64,000 nt of DNA from Escherichia phage moskry. Positions 3,140 through 20,373 of this stretch are shown here, one piece after another; position 1 is the stretch's first letter, and each line of letters opens with the position of its first letter. A program made the position numbers and the translations under genes. A model generated the notes under the pieces. The model had not been told where the DNA came from. It worked only from the letters and a program-made list of their open reading frames with translations, and did no database searches. Where the stretch lies: the sequence record MN850651.1; one strand, written 5' to 3'.

Positions 3140-3341
3140 ACCGATTGTGTTTTAAATGTTGATAAAGTTCTTCAACTTGTTTAGGGTCCAAAACAATTAG
3201 GTCATTTTCTTGACGAAGATAAATCCATCCCTTATCCCCAGGTCCATTTTTACAAAACATCACCACCATATCATCTTCAGCGCTTTCAGGTAAAAGTTCA
3301 AGTACACCGTCTTCAGATTTTCCAGTATAATCGTAAAGCAT
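3138..3341 (-). CDS. Hypothetical small protein
   Basis: ORF 3138..3368; ATG at codon 10 (3341) has SD GAGGA and avoids overlap with the upstream gene; alternative ATG at 3368. Confidence 0.4.
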   Translation of the reverse strand: MLYDYTGKSEDGVLELLPESAEDDMVVMFCKNGPGDKGWIYLRQENDLIVLDPKQVEELYQHLKHNR

Positions 3342-3348
3342 AATATCC

Positions 3349-3528
3349 TCACATAATCTCGTTAACATACATTTGCAATTCGGTGTGGGCGTCAGCCATC
3401 TTTTTCATAGCTCTGTTAATGTCGATGTCTCCATCTTCGCAACCATGAGCATTTTCCCAATCAGATACCGCATTAGCGTACTCTTCAATCAAAAACATTA
3501 ACTTAGAAATTTTTTCTTTACGTGACAT
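3349..3528 (-). CDS. Small protein at the rI.-1 position
   Basis: ORF track starts at TTG 3597 inside the upstream cassette; ATG at 3528 is preceded by SD GAGGAG; 59 aa. Confidence 0.45.
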   Translation of the reverse strand: MSRKEKISKLMFLIEEYANAVSDWENAHGCEDGDIDINRAMKKMADAHTELQMYVNEIM

Positions 3529-3532
3529 AACG

Positions 3533-3585
3533 TTCTCCTCTAGTAAGTAAGGTTTACTATAACACAACCTGAGGAGAAGTAAACT
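3533..3585 (-). promoter_or_regulatory. PeSL-like cassette with SD-containing stem
   Basis: Minus reading: GTTTACT, 17 nt, TATAGT; arms TTCTCCTC/GAGGAGAA, the 3' arm being the SD of the ATG at 3528. Confidence 0.5.
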
Positions 3586-3595
3586 GATAGATGCC

Positions 3596-3622
3596 AAAAA
3601 GCCCCAACCATAAGGAAGGGGC
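3596..3622 (-). terminator. Intrinsic terminator (minus strand)
   Basis: Stem AGCCCC/GGGGCT with A-run on plus strand (U-run on the minus transcript), 3' of the stop of rI. Confidence 0.6.
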
Positions 3623-3629
3623 TAGTAAA

Positions 3630-3932
3630 TTAGATAGATGTAGGCTCTAATTTTATTTTCATGAACTCGGCAAATTGTCTGGCAGTTTTTATGCCTTGTT
3701 CATGACATTCAAATGCATCATCACAGGGGCTATTTTTGTAATGCTTTGCCATATACTTATAGAATTTTTCAGAATTCTCGACATTTTGAATTTCAAACAA
3801 AGTATATACGTTTTTAATCCCTGATTCCATAAAGTTATCAAAATATGGGTCAACATATGCAGTGCCAACAATAGGAGTTGTTGCTGCAAAAAACCCCAGC
3901 ATCGCCATGACAGCTATCGCTCTTAAGGCCAT
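3630..3932 (-). CDS. rI: Antiholin RI (lysis inhibition)
   Basis: 100 aa; ATG with SD AGGAGG; recalled T4 RI similarity (MAL..A..AMLG..., DP.FD.FMESGI, NSPC..FEC); N-terminal signal-anchor. Confidence 0.8.
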   Translation of the reverse strand: MALRAIAVMAMLGFFAATTPIVGTAYVDPYFDNFMESGIKNVYTLFEIQNVENSEKFYKYMAKHYKNSPCDDAFECHEQGIKTARQFAEFMKIKLEPTSI

Positions 3933-3944
3933 ATAGGCCTCCTG

Positions 3945-4157
3945 TTAATTTTGGCCAGTATTTATTTTTCGCCTTTGGACGGCCTTAACATCTGTGAGGT
4001 ATTTTTCCAGCTTGCGCTTGCGTGTATAATCAGCTTTAGAACCAGTTTGACGGATATCCTCGTTTAAATGAGAAATAGAATGTCCTAATTCTCTTCGGAT
4101 TTCATCCAATTGGGTTACAGTAAGATTACGAAGTTGTCTTTCGTTTAATTGCTGCAT
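3945..4157 (-). CDS. rI.1-like small basic protein
   Basis: 70 aa; ATG start; sits between rI and tk as in T4. Confidence 0.5.
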
Positions 4158-4184
4158 ATATACCTCTTGGTTAGATATTAGTAT

Positions 4185-4766
4185 TTATAACAACCCTGTC
4201 AAATCATTCCAATGCTTCCGGCATAATGACACATATCTATCGGTATCACCAATTTCAATTTGACTGCCATCTGTAATTGGAAGTCCGTCTTCCGTGACTC
4301 TAGCTACCATTGTGGCCTTTTTACCACAATGACAGACACCTTTAAGTTCAACAAGCTTATCAGCAATAGCCATTAATGCTTGAGAACCTTCAAATAGATT
4401 ACCTTTAAAATCTGTTCGTAGTCCATATGCCATTACCGGCACATTGTATACGTCAACAATACGACTAAGTTGATACACCTTTTCAGTAGTTAAGAACTGA
4501 GCTTCGTCAACAAATACACAGTGAATATCCTTTTGTGCTGCAGCCCATTTATAGAATTCAAAGATATCCATGTCTTTTGTAATTATATTGGCGTCCTGAC
4601 GAATACCAATACGAGAGACTATTTCACCTTTTGAATCGCGAGTATCAATAGCCGGTTTAAGAACTAATACACCCATGCCACGTTCTTTATAGTTATGTGC
4701 GGCAGTAAGTAATGAAGCAGACTTACCAGCGTTCATAGCGGCATATGTAAAAATTAAACTAGCCAT
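4185..4766 (-). CDS. tk: Thymidine kinase
   Basis: 193 aa; P-loop AMNAGKS; C-terminal CHCG..C zinc motif; same length and position as T4 tk. Confidence 0.9.
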   Translation of the reverse strand: MASLIFTYAAMNAGKSASLLTAAHNYKERGMGVLVLKPAIDTRDSKGEIVSRIGIRQDANIITKDMDIFEFYKWAAAQKDIHCVFVDEAQFLTTEKVYQLSRIVDVYNVPVMAYGLRTDFKGNLFEGSQALMAIADKLVELKGVCHCGKKATMVARVTEDGLPITDGSQIEIGDTDRYVSLCRKHWNDLTGLL

Positions 4767-4956
4767 AAGAGTCCTTAGTTAAATTTTCTAAATATGTTTC
4801 CAAATCATTTTCAGCTTTATCGATAGATTTTACTAATTCGTAATATGTTTCGGCATCTCCATAATCAGAAGATAATTCAAAAGACAAATCCTTTTCTAAA
4901 CTAATAATTTCACCAACTAAAAATAATATTTCGTTCTTTTGTTCGCGAGTAATCAT
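4759..4956 (-). CDS. Small acidic protein (tk.1 position)
   Basis: 65 aa; ATG start; shares an N-terminal REQKNEILFL-type motif with the next ORF. Confidence 0.45.
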   Translation of the reverse strand: MITREQKNEILFLVGEIISLEKDLSFELSSDYGDAETYYELVKSIDKAENDLETYLENLTKDSYG

Positions 4957-14066: not shown

Positions 14067-15023
14067 TTATTTGAAAGGTTTTACCATATGAAAGTTTTGT
14101 TTGAAACGCTTGACGTAATCGTCGTGTCCTAAGCTTTGGTACATACTTACTACTTTGCTATAATTTTCCCAAGCGAACTCACGGAACCATCCTGATGTGA
14201 TTGATGTACAGACCTTTTCAAGGGCCATCATAAAACTATCACGTGGATGGATTTTAAAGTCATTAGGAATCTGAGAACGTTCTAATGCTAGTACACATGA
14301 TTCTTCATATACACCGGCCAATTTGACCATTTCTGGTAATGATTCGAACTTCTCGCGTGAGGTCATGACTTCAGAACCATCTTTCATGTAAAATGTATAC
14401 GCTGGACGGTCTGTTAGTGCAATGGCTTCGTGAATAGTATCATGGTCATATGTATAGATGTCATCTTTAAAGAACGCACTTTTAGAAGTGTCAAGAACAG
14501 GGTGAGCATAGTTCAAAGTTTCTTTTTGGCGTTTCAGCATAATTTCAGTAAGTTCATCGTTCAGTGTAACACCTTTACCACGAAGATACTGAATATGGTT
14601 CATAGTCTTTAAAAAGAATGGATTATTTTTCTTGAAACGATGAGACATCTTAATTGCAAGACATATCTCAGGAGTTGCCCAGTAAAACCCGTTCAAACGG
14701 TCTTTAGACAAATTTTTCTCAGCGTATTTTAAAAGGTCATAAGAAGACGTGAAATCTTCAGGAGTGAGTTCACCGACTAATTCACGGACATTAGTGATTG
14801 CCGGAACAATATATGCTTCAAAATGAGTTTCGCGTCCATTATGGAAGCATTTGAAAACTTGGACATCAGGGTTATCTTGGTGAACATATACACCCATCAT
14901 TTGATTTTTGAATGCATTCCAAGAACCTTGGTCCGCAATAAAGTCCCAATCACTATTTTTAATAGCGCTAGAATCAATAAGACCGTGATAGTGAAGTGCA
15001 CGAGAACCAATAACTAACATCAT
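14067..15023 (-). CDS. Possible second nucleotidyltransferase-fold protein
   Basis: 318 aa; ATG ATG start with SD GAGGA; N-terminal IGSRALHYHGLIDSSAIKNSDWDF loosely fits GS..DxD. Confidence 0.4.
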   Translation of the reverse strand: MMLVIGSRALHYHGLIDSSAIKNSDWDFIADQGSWNAFKNQMMGVYVHQDNPDVQVFKCFHNGRETHFEAYIVPAITNVRELVGELTPEDFTSSYDLLKYAEKNLSKDRLNGFYWATPEICLAIKMSHRFKKNNPFFLKTMNHIQYLRGKGVTLNDELTEIMLKRQKETLNYAHPVLDTSKSAFFKDDIYTYDHDTIHEAIALTDRPAYTFYMKDGSEVMTSREKFESLPEMVKLAGVYEESCVLALERSQIPNDFKIHPRDSFMMALEKVCTSITSGWFREFAWENYSKVVSMYQSLGHDDYVKRFKQNFHMVKPFK

Positions 15024-15051: not shown

Positions 15052-15303
15052 TTAAATTTCACGACATGCGATATTATATTCATCCCAGAGGTCATCATGT
15101 GAAGCCTCTACCAATGGAACGATTGTACCGTTTATGTCTTCATTATAAGGGCAAATTGTACAGTGCGCATCTTCGAATCGGATGCCTTTGTGTTCAGATT
15201 TTTTATAACGCATATCGAATATCTTTGCAAACTTTTCACGAGTAATGGTTTTACCAACTACTTCGGTTCCGATACTTTCGTAATAAATCATTGTGGACTC
15301 CAT
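15052..15303 (-). CDS. Hypothetical small protein
   Basis: 83 aa; ATG at 15303 is embedded in the cassette leader; alternative ATG at 15291 (codon 5) has SD GGAG. Confidence 0.4.
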   Translation of the reverse strand: MESTMIYYESIGTEVVGKTITREKFAKIFDMRYKKSEHKGIRFEDAHCTICPYNEDINGTIVPLVEASHDDLWDEYNIACREI

Positions 15304-15310
15304 TTAATTT

Positions 15311-15350
15311 GATAGGACTACTATAACATAGCCCTATCTTGTTGTAAACT
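15311..15350 (-). promoter_or_regulatory. PeSL-like early promoter cassette
   Basis: Minus reading: GTTTACA, 17 nt, TATAGT; inverted repeat around -10. Confidence 0.5.
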
Positions 15351-15353
15351 GTT

Positions 15354-15551
15354 TTAGCAAGAATAACTAGATGATACCCAGCCTTGAACAGTGATACTAT
15401 TGTTGGATAATGAGATCGCGTCCTGGAGATTCAGACCTGCGTTATCTTCAATCCACAATGTAACTTCTTCGCGTTCTTCTGTTGCAATTTGGAACAGGTT
15501 TTCCAGAGCAGCTACTGCCGTACGTACAGCACAATCTAATTCACGAGACAT
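15354..15551 (-). CDS. Small protein, member C of a tandem paralog triplet
   Basis: 65 aa; C-terminus QGWVSSSYSC shared with the two upstream ORFs. Confidence 0.45.
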   Translation of the reverse strand: MSRELDCAVRTAVAALENLFQIATEEREEVTLWIEDNAGLNLQDAISLSNNSITVQGWVSSSYSC

Positions 15552-15560
15552 ATGATTTCC

Positions 15561-15833
15561 TTAACAAGTGTGAGAAGATGCAACCCAACCGCCATCTTCA
15601 AGGCTCAAGTTGTAGTCGTATTGGTAAACGTCAGCCCATTCAGCATAGCCGTTTTTTGTACAACGTTCAAGATCGGCTTTAAGATGTCCGGGTGAATGAT
15701 AGGTTCCACCCATACCATAAGCTGGATACAAGTCGAATGTTGTGTTTTGTTTATCAGCAATTTCTTTGGCAGCCTCAATAGCTGCATAGATTTTTGCTAC
15801 GGCTTCAGCCAGTTCGGTTTGTTCTTTAGACAT
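15561..15833 (-). CDS. Small protein, member B of a tandem paralog triplet
   Basis: 90 aa; C-terminus GGWVASSHTC. Confidence 0.45.
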   Translation of the reverse strand: MSKEQTELAEAVAKIYAAIEAAKEIADKQNTTFDLYPAYGMGGTYHSPGHLKADLERCTKNGYAEWADVYQYDYNLSLEDGGWVASSHTC

Positions 15834-15842
15834 AATGATTCC

Positions 15843-16148
15843 TTAGCACAACGCAGAAGACGAAACCCAAGCACCTTCAGTAATAACGTAACCATTACCT
15901 TCACGCTTAACATCGCCACCATTATTTTCAATTTCATCTTTCATCCACTGGGATACGATTTCACCCTTAGGATAATAAGTACGACCGCTACCATAATCAC
16001 CTACAGAAAATGATACGGCATATTGGTCTGCGATCTTTGTTGCTTCTTCTTCGATACGTTCAGCTTGATTCAGAAGTTTATAAATTGCATCTGAAGCGGA
16101 TTTGGCATCATTAAACTCTGGTACTTTAATTTCAATAATCTTACTCAT
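15843..16148 (-). CDS. Small protein, member A of a tandem paralog triplet
   Basis: 101 aa; ATG start; C-terminus GAWVSSSALC. Confidence 0.45.
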   Translation of the reverse strand: MSKIIEIKVPEFNDAKSASDAIYKLLNQAERIEEEATKIADQYAVSFSVGDYGSGRTYYPKGEIVSQWMKDEIENNGGDVKREGNGYVITEGAWVSSSALC

Positions 16149-16206
16149 TTTCTACATTCCTTAATAAAGTTTTCGATTGTTTCATTTTCACGTCTAGCTA
16201 GGAGTT

Positions 16207-16238
16207 CATTATAACTAATCATTTGAGAAGCGTAAACA
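16207..16238 (-). promoter_or_regulatory. Early promoter (sigma70-like)
   Basis: Minus reading: GTTTAC, about 18 nt, TATAAT; 5' of the paralog triplet. Confidence 0.5.
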
Positions 16239-16246
16239 GCATAAAT

Positions 16247-16639
16247 TCAGTTCAGGCTTTTGCATCTTATCTCCTTAACGAATTCCATGGCTTCGTCATA
16301 TTCATATTTTTTAACAGCCTCGTCATATTGAGCTCTTGCTTTTGCACATTGAATTTTCCATTCGCGTACTCGAGCTCTATAATGTCGTCCTTGGTACCAA
16401 TATCCCACCCAATTAATAGGCATTAATAAAAATGGCACAATAAACGACCCGGCTATAATAAGTAAAAACACTGCATCAGACGATATAACTTCACTAGAAT
16501 CTAAAACAGCTCCTATAATCATAAAGATTAAAAATGCTAAAGCTAAAATAGGGCCAAATAGTACTTCGTTTGGGATTAATTTACGTTTGTATTCGTATGC
16601 CCAGGGCTTAATTGGCATGTACAGGGTTGGCTTTGACAT
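16247..16639 (-). CDS. Membrane protein, hypothetical
   Basis: ORF track 16247..16669 starts at TTG; first ATG at codon 11; hydrophobic core then a basic C-terminus; start uncertain. Confidence 0.35.
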   Translation of the reverse strand: MSKPTLYMPIKPWAYEYKRKLIPNEVLFGPILALAFLIFMIIGAVLDSSEVISSDAVFLLIIAGSFIVPFLLMPINWVGYWYQGRHYRARVREWKIQCAKARAQYDEAVKKYEYDEAMEFVKEIRCKSLN

Positions 16640-17210
16640 ATTCTCTACATTCCATAATAAATTGCTCAAGGATTAAATTGTTAGTGAAATTAGGACTAAC
16701 AACCATAGTTTCATAAAGCGCATCAATAGCACTTAAAGCATCAACTCTCTTAAGCAAAGGCTTGCCTTCATACATAGTTTCAGAATCGACGATTAAAGTG
16801 AAGTAGTATTTTTTATTATTGACCAGAACTTCTGTATCAATATAAAACATGTTAGACCTTAAAAGCTTGTCTCTAAAACCATAATAATCTTTAGAGCATT
16901 CGCTGATATATTCCCATTCAGTGTTTAAACAACAAACAGACCATGTAGGAGCAACGAACTCAGTGAATCTAATATCATGGTCTGCAACTAGTTTAGCAAT
17001 AGCTCCGATATCATGAATCATAATACCTGGGGCTAATAAAGATTTTCTGCTATGGCTAGCCGTTTTCTCAGTAGTCTCATAAGAAGACGACCAGTACCAT
17101 TTACGTCCAGTTGCAACATATCGTAATGAATCAACTAAAGACGTAGGTGGATTTACCTTATCTCGGAACTCTTCGAACATTGAGTCAATATCATTATTTT
17201 GGTTTCGCAT
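16608..17210 (-). CDS. Hypothetical protein
   Basis: ORF track starts at TTG 17231; ATG at codon 8 follows SD AAGGAG; 200 aa. Confidence 0.4.
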   Translation of the reverse strand: MRNQNNDIDSMFEEFRDKVNPPTSLVDSLRYVATGRKWYWSSSYETTEKTASHSRKSLLAPGIMIHDIGAIAKLVADHDIRFTEFVAPTWSVCCLNTEWEYISECSKDYYGFRDKLLRSNMFYIDTEVLVNNKKYYFTLIVDSETMYEGKPLLKRVDALSAIDALYETMVVSPNFTNNLILEQFIMECREYVKANPVHAN

Positions 17211-17229
17211 GTTAACTCCTTTATTATCC

Positions 17230-17251
17230 AAAAGGAGGACCGGAGTCCTCC
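17230..17251 (-). terminator. Intrinsic terminator (minus strand)
   Basis: Stem GGAGGAC/GTCCTCC, loop CGGA, A-run on plus strand (U-run on the minus transcript), 3' of gene 17260..17853. Confidence 0.55.
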
Positions 17252-17259
17252 GTATTATT

Positions 17260-17853
17260 TTATTTCAAAGAGTTAATATATTCTTGTACATCTGCAGAAG
17301 TGGTTTCGACACCAGCTGGAGTGCCATTGAACGTTTCAACACGAGTCAGAGTGTCTTCGATATCAACCTTAGTCAGTGCAGCGATTTCAATTACATCATC
17401 AGCCGTAGAGATACCAAGGGCATTAGCTGCTCGAGTTTCACGAATGTATTCGAGTTTGATTGCCAGATTCTGACGAGCATCGTCAAGTTCAACCACCTTA
17501 CGAGCAATTTCAATTCGCATAGCGGCATACCCGTCAGCTTTTGTATTAAGTTGTTCGGCAGTTCGACGATACAGAAGACCAAGCTTAGCATGCATGGTAA
17601 CATCTTGTCCTTCGGCCAGGAGCTTACGAATTTCACGTTCCTTAGAAGCGGCTTGCTTGTTCTTTTCATTAACAAGTTCGCGAATACGTTTTTCTTCATT
17701 AATAGATTTAACAGAAGCCGTTTTTAGTTCTTTGATTTGGGTAATCAACTTATCTGCAGCTGCGTTATACTGTTCTTCGACAGTCAGATTTTTAGCCATA
17801 GCAGTACCCAGTTTAGTGCGGATGAATTCAACAAGTTTCTTCAGTGTGTTCAT
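17260..17853 (-). CDS. Coiled-coil protein (possibly PspA/IM30-like)
   Basis: ATG at codon 6 (MNTLKKL); about 197 aa; predominantly helical heptad-like sequence; family assignment tentative. Confidence 0.4.
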
Positions 17854-17887
17854 ATTATTACCTTTCAATTGGTGGTTTATTATCCAA

Positions 17888-20216: not shown

Positions 20217-20293
<77 letters not shown>

Positions 20294-20299
20294 AATATA

Positions 20300-20373
20300 T
20301 GACCCAGACCAGATTCGAACTGGTAACCTTTCCCTTATGAGGGGACTGCTGCTAACCATTGAGCTACAGGGCC
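20300..20373 (-). tRNA. tRNA with CAU anticodon (Ile or Met type)
   Basis: 74 nt; T arm ACCAG-TTCGAAT-CTGGT; anticodon loop CTCATAA; acceptor GGCCCTG/CTGGGTC with one mismatch; CCA not encoded. Confidence 0.65.

Follow-up and report, generated by a model that had tools for sequence, protein, structure and literature searches.

A tandem array of small Cys-tailed proteins beside a predicted nucleotidyltransferase gene suggests an undescribed enzyme-plus-partner module in large virulent phages

We analyzed a window of 64,000 nucleotides (nt) from Escherichia phage moskry (MN850651.1), a Mosigvirus genome of the RB69/PhAPEC2-like, T4-type group, and in it a run of three small open reading frames (ORFs) whose products all end in cysteine. 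We find that this array, together with the gene of a predicted nucleotidyltransferase (NTase) lying beyond it on the same strand, is a conserved, essentially phage-only two-part module. A preliminary description of the three ORFs, made from the letters alone, had their coordinates, lengths, and C-termini exactly right but did not state the strand, which is minus for all three. Its account of them as tandem paralogues in a T4-like phage, placed behind an early-promoter-like site and sharing a Cys-ending tail, holds as well. The unit of interest, however, reaches about 1.3 kb beyond the array, to a 318-amino-acid (aa) ORF that was not part of that description. The features of the locus are as follows.

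16148..15843, minus strand: small paralogue A, 101 aa, ending EGAWVSSSALC (from the ORF list)
15833..15561, minus strand: small paralogue B, 90 aa, ending DGGWVASSHTC (from the ORF list)
15551..15354, minus strand: small paralogue C, 65 aa, ending VQGWVSSSYSC (from the ORF list)
15023..14067, minus strand: 318-aa DUF7277+DUF7275 protein, predicted NTase of the Pol-beta fold
15052..15303, minus strand: 83-aa ORF (phrog_3723) between the array and the enzyme gene
16236..16208, minus strand: T4-type early-promoter-like site GTTTAC-N17-TATAAT, before the first small ORF (consensus scan, 10/12 match)
15348..15320, minus strand: second T4-type early-promoter-like site GTTTAC-N17-TATAGT, with TG, directly after the stop of paralogue C (consensus match)

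Both promoter-like sites are consensus matches only. Each of the three small ORFs is preceded by the Shine-Dalgarno sequence TAAGGA, and at the two internal junctions the next gene's copy of it overlaps with the Cys codon and TAA stop of the gene before (..TGC TAA GGA ATC ATT ATG and ..TGT TAA GGA AAT CAT ATG). The start codon of paralogue B thus lies 9 nt past the stop of paralogue A, with the TAAGGA shared. The two junctions, at 15825-15855 and 15543-15573, are nearly alike (TG[CT] TAA GGA A.. ATG), and this near-identity would be consistent with tandem duplication and translational coupling. On the minus strand, no terminator-like site was found from the small genes to the NTase gene. The 951-bp array region is matched by 137 phage records at 95-99% identity; many of these alignments begin only at query base 14.

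The three small proteins belong to no described family. Searches against Pfam, NCBIfam, and PADLOC gave no model match and only sub-threshold noise, with the best scores going to Peptidase_S78_2 (expectation value, E, 0.007), E217_Gp32 (E 0.01), and PDC-S49 (E 0.01). In PHROGs, the proteins fall into two bins that are both labeled 'unknown function': phrog_899, matched by paralogue A (E 1.3e-22) and paralogue B (E 4.8e-19), and phrog_4882, matched by paralogue C (E 1.1e-36). A word-indexed protein search returned 7 relatives only, whereas an exhaustive HMMER profile search of 1.84 billion cluster representatives at a threshold of E<=1e-3 returned 195 family proteins, nearly all of 65-140 aa and matching up to their last residue. 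The family consensus consists of an amphipathic helix ending ..(I/L)AD(E)xG.xF.., a Gly-rich hairpin YGMGGTYYP.G, an acidic stretch, and the C-terminal G-x-W-[VILM..]-[SAP]-S-S-x-x-C. The proteins are acidic, with a median isoelectric point of 4.5 and a median net charge of -8, and in more than half of them the terminal Cys is the sole Cys. By tblastn, the 101-aa type is present in 391 phage records and paralogue C in 251.

The family is directly established, and so is the near-invariance of its tail. Of 153 family sequences, made up of the profile-search matches listed and the word-indexed matches, 138 are Cys-terminated, and those that are not are either fragments or carry one extra residue past the Cys. 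The search profile itself held the tail, so we repeated the test with tails removed: the last ten residues and the window proteins were left out when the model was built, and the target ORFs were likewise trimmed of their last ten residues. In this blind test, 118 of 119 non-identical family ORFs end in Cys and 99 of the 119 fit W..SS..C$, the rest being near variants. For comparison, 8% of the stop-to-stop ORFs of at least 60 aa in the same loci end in Cys, a figure that includes the family's own ORFs. The W, the Ser at -4, and the Cys are invariant across the 103 sequences that fit W..S[SA]..C$. A chance or non-coding origin of the tail is ruled out by this family-wide conservation. The preliminary description had proposed looking for the motif in related phages, and there the tail is kept, both in orthologues and beyond them in jumbo phages, Phapecoctavirus, and Myxococcus phage Mx1. 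Within one subfamily the sequence reads ..DW[LN]NSSC.. inside the protein and ..W[YQH]PSSC at its end (L009 1871-3114; L015 2052-3652; L021 2072-3690), and, judging from these sequences, the W-x-S-S-C unit can probably work away from the extreme C-terminus.

The small proteins share more than their ends. It had been stated that the N-terminal regions of the three paralogues have diverged, and this applies to paralogue C but not to A and B. A family profile hidden Markov model (HMM) built without tails and without the window proteins matches paralogue A at E 9e-26 and paralogue B at E 1e-20, which means that their bodies, with a common ..IAD.. and F.F..YGxGxTYYP.G, are homologous and not their tails alone. 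In an AlphaFold (AF2) model of paralogue A, with a predicted local distance difference test (pLDDT) score of 87, a helix at 15-43 is followed by a YGSGRTYYP hairpin, three more strands, and then the tail; paralogue B has the canonical YGMGGTY hairpin. The body of paralogue C does not match the tail-less model of the main family significantly (E 0.014, 1.7 bits), lacks the YGxGGTYYP hairpin, and has a second conserved Cys at residue 7. It belongs to a subfamily of its own (phrog_4882); Dhakavirus, Karamvirus, Jiaodavirus, and others have orthologues that match it over the full length at 55-63% identity, and the orthologues in other T4-like genera all end in W[VQA]SSS..C.

Several further observations concern individual members. 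The RB69 orthologue of the 101-aa ORF (RB69ORF139c, P0002) is annotated as 71 aa and ends ...SQWYEK, its tail gone through a frameshift, a pseudogene, or a sequencing error; this loss suggests that single paralogues are dispensable. In a protein of 1446 aa (P0136), the part of the family profile that covers the YGxGxTYY hairpin matches at six separate places. In a profile search against PDB sequences, the small proteins gave only weak matches, to a YGxGR hairpin in GH112/fucosidase-like proteins (E ~0.2) and to designed helical bundles, all of which we put down to chance or to low-complexity helix. The YGxGxTYY hairpin in P0136 and in the GH112/fucosidase-like enzymes is probably a generic beta-hairpin motif. 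Three members have been expressed in a toxicity screen of phage phiR1-RT genes, where g126, g127, and g128 gave relative colony-forming units of 0.94, 0.69, and 1.08 and were thus not toxic (PMC6893735 supplement). We recognize them as family members from their reverse primers, which encode ..SSSDC, ..VSSSDMC, and ..ESSSC (same supplement), and ORFs matching g126-g128 are present in the loci of the related phages TG1 and fHe-Yen9-01.

The linkage of the small genes to the enzyme gene is observed directly and from both sides. Three distant family members, on 84-kb and 58-kb metagenomic phage contigs and in Mx1, have a gene of about 300 aa with DUF7277+DUF7275 immediately downstream on the same strand. 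From the enzyme side, we used 90 loci, of which 80 were viral contigs picked purely by DUF7275 similarity and the others were loci fetched earlier. At least one HMM-detected small ORF is present in 79 of the 90, and in all 79 every such ORF is on the enzyme's strand and upstream, with a median gap of 530 nt; when ORFs with the tail pattern are counted too, the number rises to 85 of 90. Not one tail-pattern ORF was found on the opposite strand or downstream of the enzyme gene in these 90 loci. From the small-gene side, a DNA pattern for YGMGGTYYP gave 13 viral loci, and the enzyme gene is next in all 10 that have enough downstream sequence. The linkage is also present in Mx1, Phapecoctavirus, and two metagenomic contigs. 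On three metagenomic phage contigs (L082, L086, and L087), the enzyme gene is surrounded by five or six family ORFs detected by HMM, with more varied tails (..GWYSSHC, ..WEGSSC, ..WQPSAQSC), and in L082 and L086 one family copy lies just downstream of it.

The number of copies in an array ranges from 1 to at least 5. T4-type phages of the JS98-like, Karam-like, and Jiaoda-like groups have five distinct subfamilies in tandem, of which three are kept in this Mosigvirus. In T4 itself, the syntenic region from e to the tRNA genes lacks both the small genes and the enzyme gene, and this co-absence counts for a partnership between them. The enzyme gene is present in 734 of 50,697 phage records. Among 185,579 bacterial and archaeal species, each represented by one genome, we found the enzyme in five loci only, all on contigs of metagenome-assembled genomes (MAGs), four of them 73-167 kb long and one a 2.3-kb fragment; tail-bearing ORFs are present as well in the four that have upstream sequence. 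Since the only loci in cellular genomes are these phage-sized MAG contigs and a fragment, the module is essentially phage-restricted. The preliminary description had suggested that the tail is a shared interaction or modification site, and the tight linkage to an NTase gene strengthens this plausible suggestion.

The 318-aa protein consists of DUF7277 (E 1e-27) and DUF7275 (E 1.9e-79) and falls into phrog_2141. An AlphaFold model made from a 52-homologue alignment (pLDDT 91.9) has an alpha/beta N-terminal part and an all-helical C-terminal part. Its structural neighbors, with the similarity value for each, are as follows.

MenT1 toxin: 10.6
ANT(2''): 9.1
TglT/MenT3: 9.0
MenT4: 8.4
H. pylori putative NTase: 8.0
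LnuA: 6.9

The features of a Pol-beta NTase, namely the alpha/beta fold, hG[GS], [DE]h[DE]h, and a third carboxylate, are all present in the protein, and the analysis shows both the fold and the intact catalytic residues. Among 85 homologues that have small partners, G6, S7, and D27 do not vary, D25 is kept in 83 and is E in 2, and E69 is kept in 78 and is D in 6 and N in 1. With the modeled fold and the diagnostic residues conserved in this way, the protein is very probably an active nucleotidyltransferase. The helical half has its own invariants (K125, H128, R165, H194-D195, H198, E240-E241, R249, and K270-x-C272-x-S-I-T-S-G-x-F-R281), and the conservation of the C-terminal half is unusual (GVYEExCVLALERSQIP, KVCTSITSGWFRE), as would be expected if that half binds a conserved ligand such as the tail. 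All six neighbors are NTases of the Pol-beta fold. MenT1, MenT3, MenT4, ANT(2''), and LnuA all put a nucleoside monophosphate (NMP) on hydroxyls, which are the 3'-OH of tRNA (MenT; PMC10435456), the 2''-OH of aminoglycosides, or an OH of lincosamides. By sequence, the enzyme is a member of neither DUF1814/AbiEii nor RlaP (PF10127) nor any other named NTase family: the 52 homologues had no Pfam match to PF08843/DUF1814 at E up to 10, and the PADLOC AbiE models gave no match to the enzyme. There is also no solved structure that is related to it by sequence.

The explanation that we consider best overall, while giving it somewhat less than an even chance, is that the tail is the enzyme's handle and that the small proteins of this module are acceptor substrates. 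In this mechanism, the tail would be recognized by the enzyme and enter its active-site cleft, and the enzyme would move an NMP from a nucleoside triphosphate onto it. The hydroxyl acceptor would be the invariant Ser at -4/-3, with the thiol or carboxylate of the terminal Cys aiding positioning or metal binding. A single enzyme would charge several paralogous proteins, which would then act early in infection. The parts of this explanation are not equally strong. Physical recognition of the tail by the enzyme, which would make the two partners, is probable, whereas covalent modification of the small proteins is a more tentative proposal. Modification is favored because the structural relatives of the enzyme nucleotidylylate hydroxyls, because the tail presents an invariant Ser-Ser by a terminal Cys, and because there are several paralogues per enzyme; arrays of 1 to at least 5 retained paralogues argue for one enzyme with many substrates over one toxin with many antitoxins. 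More doubtful is the general form of the proposal, a previously unrecognized phage protein-modification system in which a Pol-beta NTase would nucleotidylylate, or otherwise activate, a Ser-Ser-x-x-Cys tail and so charge up to five or more paralogous effectors early in infection. In a more exotic version, the terminal Cys would undergo further chemistry with the tail as its scaffold or carrier.

Several observations weigh against this explanation. In the window, the enzyme gene does not share a promoter-like site with the array: each has one of its own, and the two are separated by an unrelated ORF of 83 aa. In the AF2 monomer of paralogue A, W94-S96 belong to a strand and S97-L100 to a short turn of helix, so that the conservation of the W and the two Ser could be partly structural, through core packing or as a helix N-cap. 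The subfamily that has W-x-S-S-C internally as well as at its terminus, and the few members with one residue past the Cys, indicate that a free carboxylate is not strictly needed. On the enzyme side, no small partner is detectable for the divergent homologues in actinophages (of Streptomyces and Gordonia) and in Schizotequatrovirus, which are also shorter, or for one clade of close homologues, and it follows that the enzyme must have a role that does not need the small proteins. The partner-less clade of close homologues (L052, L054, L057, and L077, at about 3200-4930) has a 179-aa ORF upstream in place of a tail-bearing ORF, and it alone alters D193 (to Q/E) and Y209 (to F), which are otherwise conserved. 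From this comparison, which concerns a single clade, D193 and Y209 could be tail-contact residues. We rejected W279R as another such change in this clade, since it is also present in loci with partners.

The same evidence can be read in other ways. In the chief alternative, the small acidic proteins would be regulators like MenA1, binding the NTase non-covalently as pseudo-substrates and blocking or tuning it. In that role they would restrain an enzyme that could modify tRNA, or set when it is active. MenA1 is indeed a 68-aa protein whose gene lies just upstream of menT1 and which blocks the MenT1 active site (PMC10435456), and the acidity of the small proteins would suit an RNA-binding cleft. 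We nevertheless regard this as unlikely, as five or more long-retained paralogous 'antitoxins' per enzyme would be unprecedented and the small proteins have no sequence or fold likeness to any solved antitoxin. The enzyme, for its part, lacks the DUF1814/AbiEii sequence signature, and in a module that is restricted to virulent phages and not found in cellular genomes the logic of addiction or abortive infection does not apply.

Less likely still is that the small proteins are functionally independent early proteins, such as host take-over proteins, anti-defense binders, or metal-binding oligomers, whose tail binds a host target or a metal and whose genes merely travel with the NTase gene in an early accessory block or in a pathway, for example a tRNA-centered one. 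The early-promoter context in the hyperplastic region between nudE/e and the tRNA genes fits such a role, as does a set of small, acidic, paralogue-expanded proteins, which many anti-defense proteins also are. The array has its own promoter-like site, with the second site after it; with only one Cys in more than half of the members, terminal cysteines could bridge a metal in an oligomer; and some enzyme homologues do without small partners. What speaks against independence is that the same-strand upstream adjacency is retained across T4-like phages, Phapecoctavirus, jumbo phages of about 355-370 kb, Mx1, and many metagenomic lineages, while the other neighbors all change, and this is hard to explain without a direct functional tie. 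In addition, the small proteins had no fold match in PDB or BFVD and no PADLOC match to known anti-defense sponges or inhibitors (Tad1, Tad2, Acb2, Acb4, Acr, etc.). We consider it very improbable that the S-x-x-C-COOH end undergoes chemistry like that of ribosomally synthesized and post-translationally modified peptides (RiPPs) or of scaffold peptides, being processed in the aminovinyl-cysteine (AviCys) or the PEARL/3-thiaglutamate manner with the NTase activating the C-terminus. Tandem precursor-like genes before one enzyme gene would suit this, and so would a terminal Cys position kept in 118/119 members, with a Ser at -3 from it as in the AviCys register of epidermin-type peptides. The S/T-x-x-C register is thus shared with AviCys-type precursors, but their HFCD decarboxylase and dehydratase neighbors are not: no gene for a flavoprotein decarboxylase, a dehydratase, a radical-SAM, or a LanB-like protein was found among the seven neighboring ORFs that were scanned in the window, nor did the Pfam lists for three distant loci contain one. 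The small proteins are also predicted to be folded domains of 65-140 aa and not leader-plus-core peptides, and Pol-beta NTases are not, to our knowledge, known to adenylate carboxylates.

Returning to the substrate explanation, precedents exist in the HEPN/MNT type VII toxin-antitoxin systems and in GlnD/PII, where a Pol-beta NTase AMPylates or UMPylates a cognate small protein that is encoded adjacent to it or works with it. The acceptor in these systems is a Tyr in a folded loop, whereas here it would be a C-terminal Ser/Cys tail, and their partners (HEPN RNase and PII) are unlike the small proteins. A HEPN test on the latter gave no match in Pfam or PDB and no R-x4-6-H among the conserved columns; the only HEPN-like signal was a non-significant match to the RNase L KEN domain inside the enzyme (E 0.21). 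With the MenAT systems (MenT1/MenA1, MenT3/TglT, and MenT4; DUF1814/AbiEii), the enzyme shares the fold but not membership in the sequence family. The ANT(2'')/AadB, LnuA, and H. pylori JHP933-type NTases are 160-225 aa long, act on small-molecule acceptors, and have no protein partner, and their sequence similarity to the enzyme is undetectable.

RlaP (PF10127) is an RNA-ligase-associated Pol-beta NTase family typical of large and jumbo phages (PMC7824862, PMC12776372). The enzyme is likewise a predicted Pol-beta NTase of large phages, and a few of its homologues are also near RNA ligase or tRNA genes. Some adjoin an Rnl1-type RNA ligase or tRNA clusters (L005 4612-5763; L095 872-1531; L096 4850-6439; tRNA genes in L028/L029). 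We know of no Cys-tailed small partner of RlaP. Identity with RlaP was rejected, as there is no PF10127 match and an RNA ligase is a neighbor in only two of the loci inspected. A view of the module as linked to tRNA clusters was also set aside as weak, since tRNA genes lie within 4 kb of the enzyme in 6 of 58 loci. By HMM, the window proteins are members of phrog_899, phrog_4882, phrog_2141, and DUF7277/DUF7275, but these entries are unannotated and record neither the tail motif nor the linkage. Our literature searches on phrog_899, DUF7275/7277, and the ORF names of RB69 and phage 31 found nothing, and the topical literature held nothing relevant. We found no paper describing the combination of a Cys-tailed small-protein array with a dedicated NTase, restricted to virulent phages.

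The 83-aa ORF between the array and the enzyme gene is a lineage-specific passenger outside the core of the module. Its homologues are present in 12 of the fetched loci, all from close T4-like relatives, and it has no match in Pfam, NCBIfam, or PADLOC; its product carries ..HCTICPY... Upstream of the array, the area just beyond the first small gene (16149-16700 versus L001 5360-6093) varies among close relatives. In phage ChristianSchoenbein, the same region is flanked by tRNA genes and nudE/e and has two overlapping annotated genes, where the window has one 140-aa membrane-protein-like ORF (16669..16247) and a 98-nt gap that bears the promoter-like site. Farther up, genes for tRNA-Arg and tRNA-Met(cat) are at 20217-20373 on the minus strand, about 4 kb upstream of the module. 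Above the array, at 16608-17868 on the minus strand, there are also ORFs of 207 and 202 aa, approximately the sizes of T4 e.5 and e.6 and in the same relative position. If these are the e.5 and e.6 counterparts, the module sits where T4 has e.2-e.4, a hyperplastic region.

Taken as a module, the array and the enzyme gene are carried by T4-like phages of E. coli, Klebsiella, Enterobacter, Acinetobacter, and Aeromonas, which are phages of the therapeutic type, as well as by rV5-like phages, jumbo phages, and Myxococcus phage Mx1. Although hundreds of sequenced phages carry it, the annotation of each half reads 'hypothetical'. It is unusual for a family of folded proteins to keep a near-invariant C-terminal Cys, and equally so for it to be strictly coupled to an enzyme with relatives that modify the ends of tRNA or adenylylate hydroxyls. 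These features point to a module of enzyme and partner proteins, so far undescribed, in big virulent phages. Modification of the tail, if it occurs, would add a new kind of post-translational modification to those of viruses, whereas inhibition of the enzyme by the small proteins would make the two the first MenAT-like pair that virulent phages have adapted. In either case, a common block of phage 'dark matter' would acquire a function.

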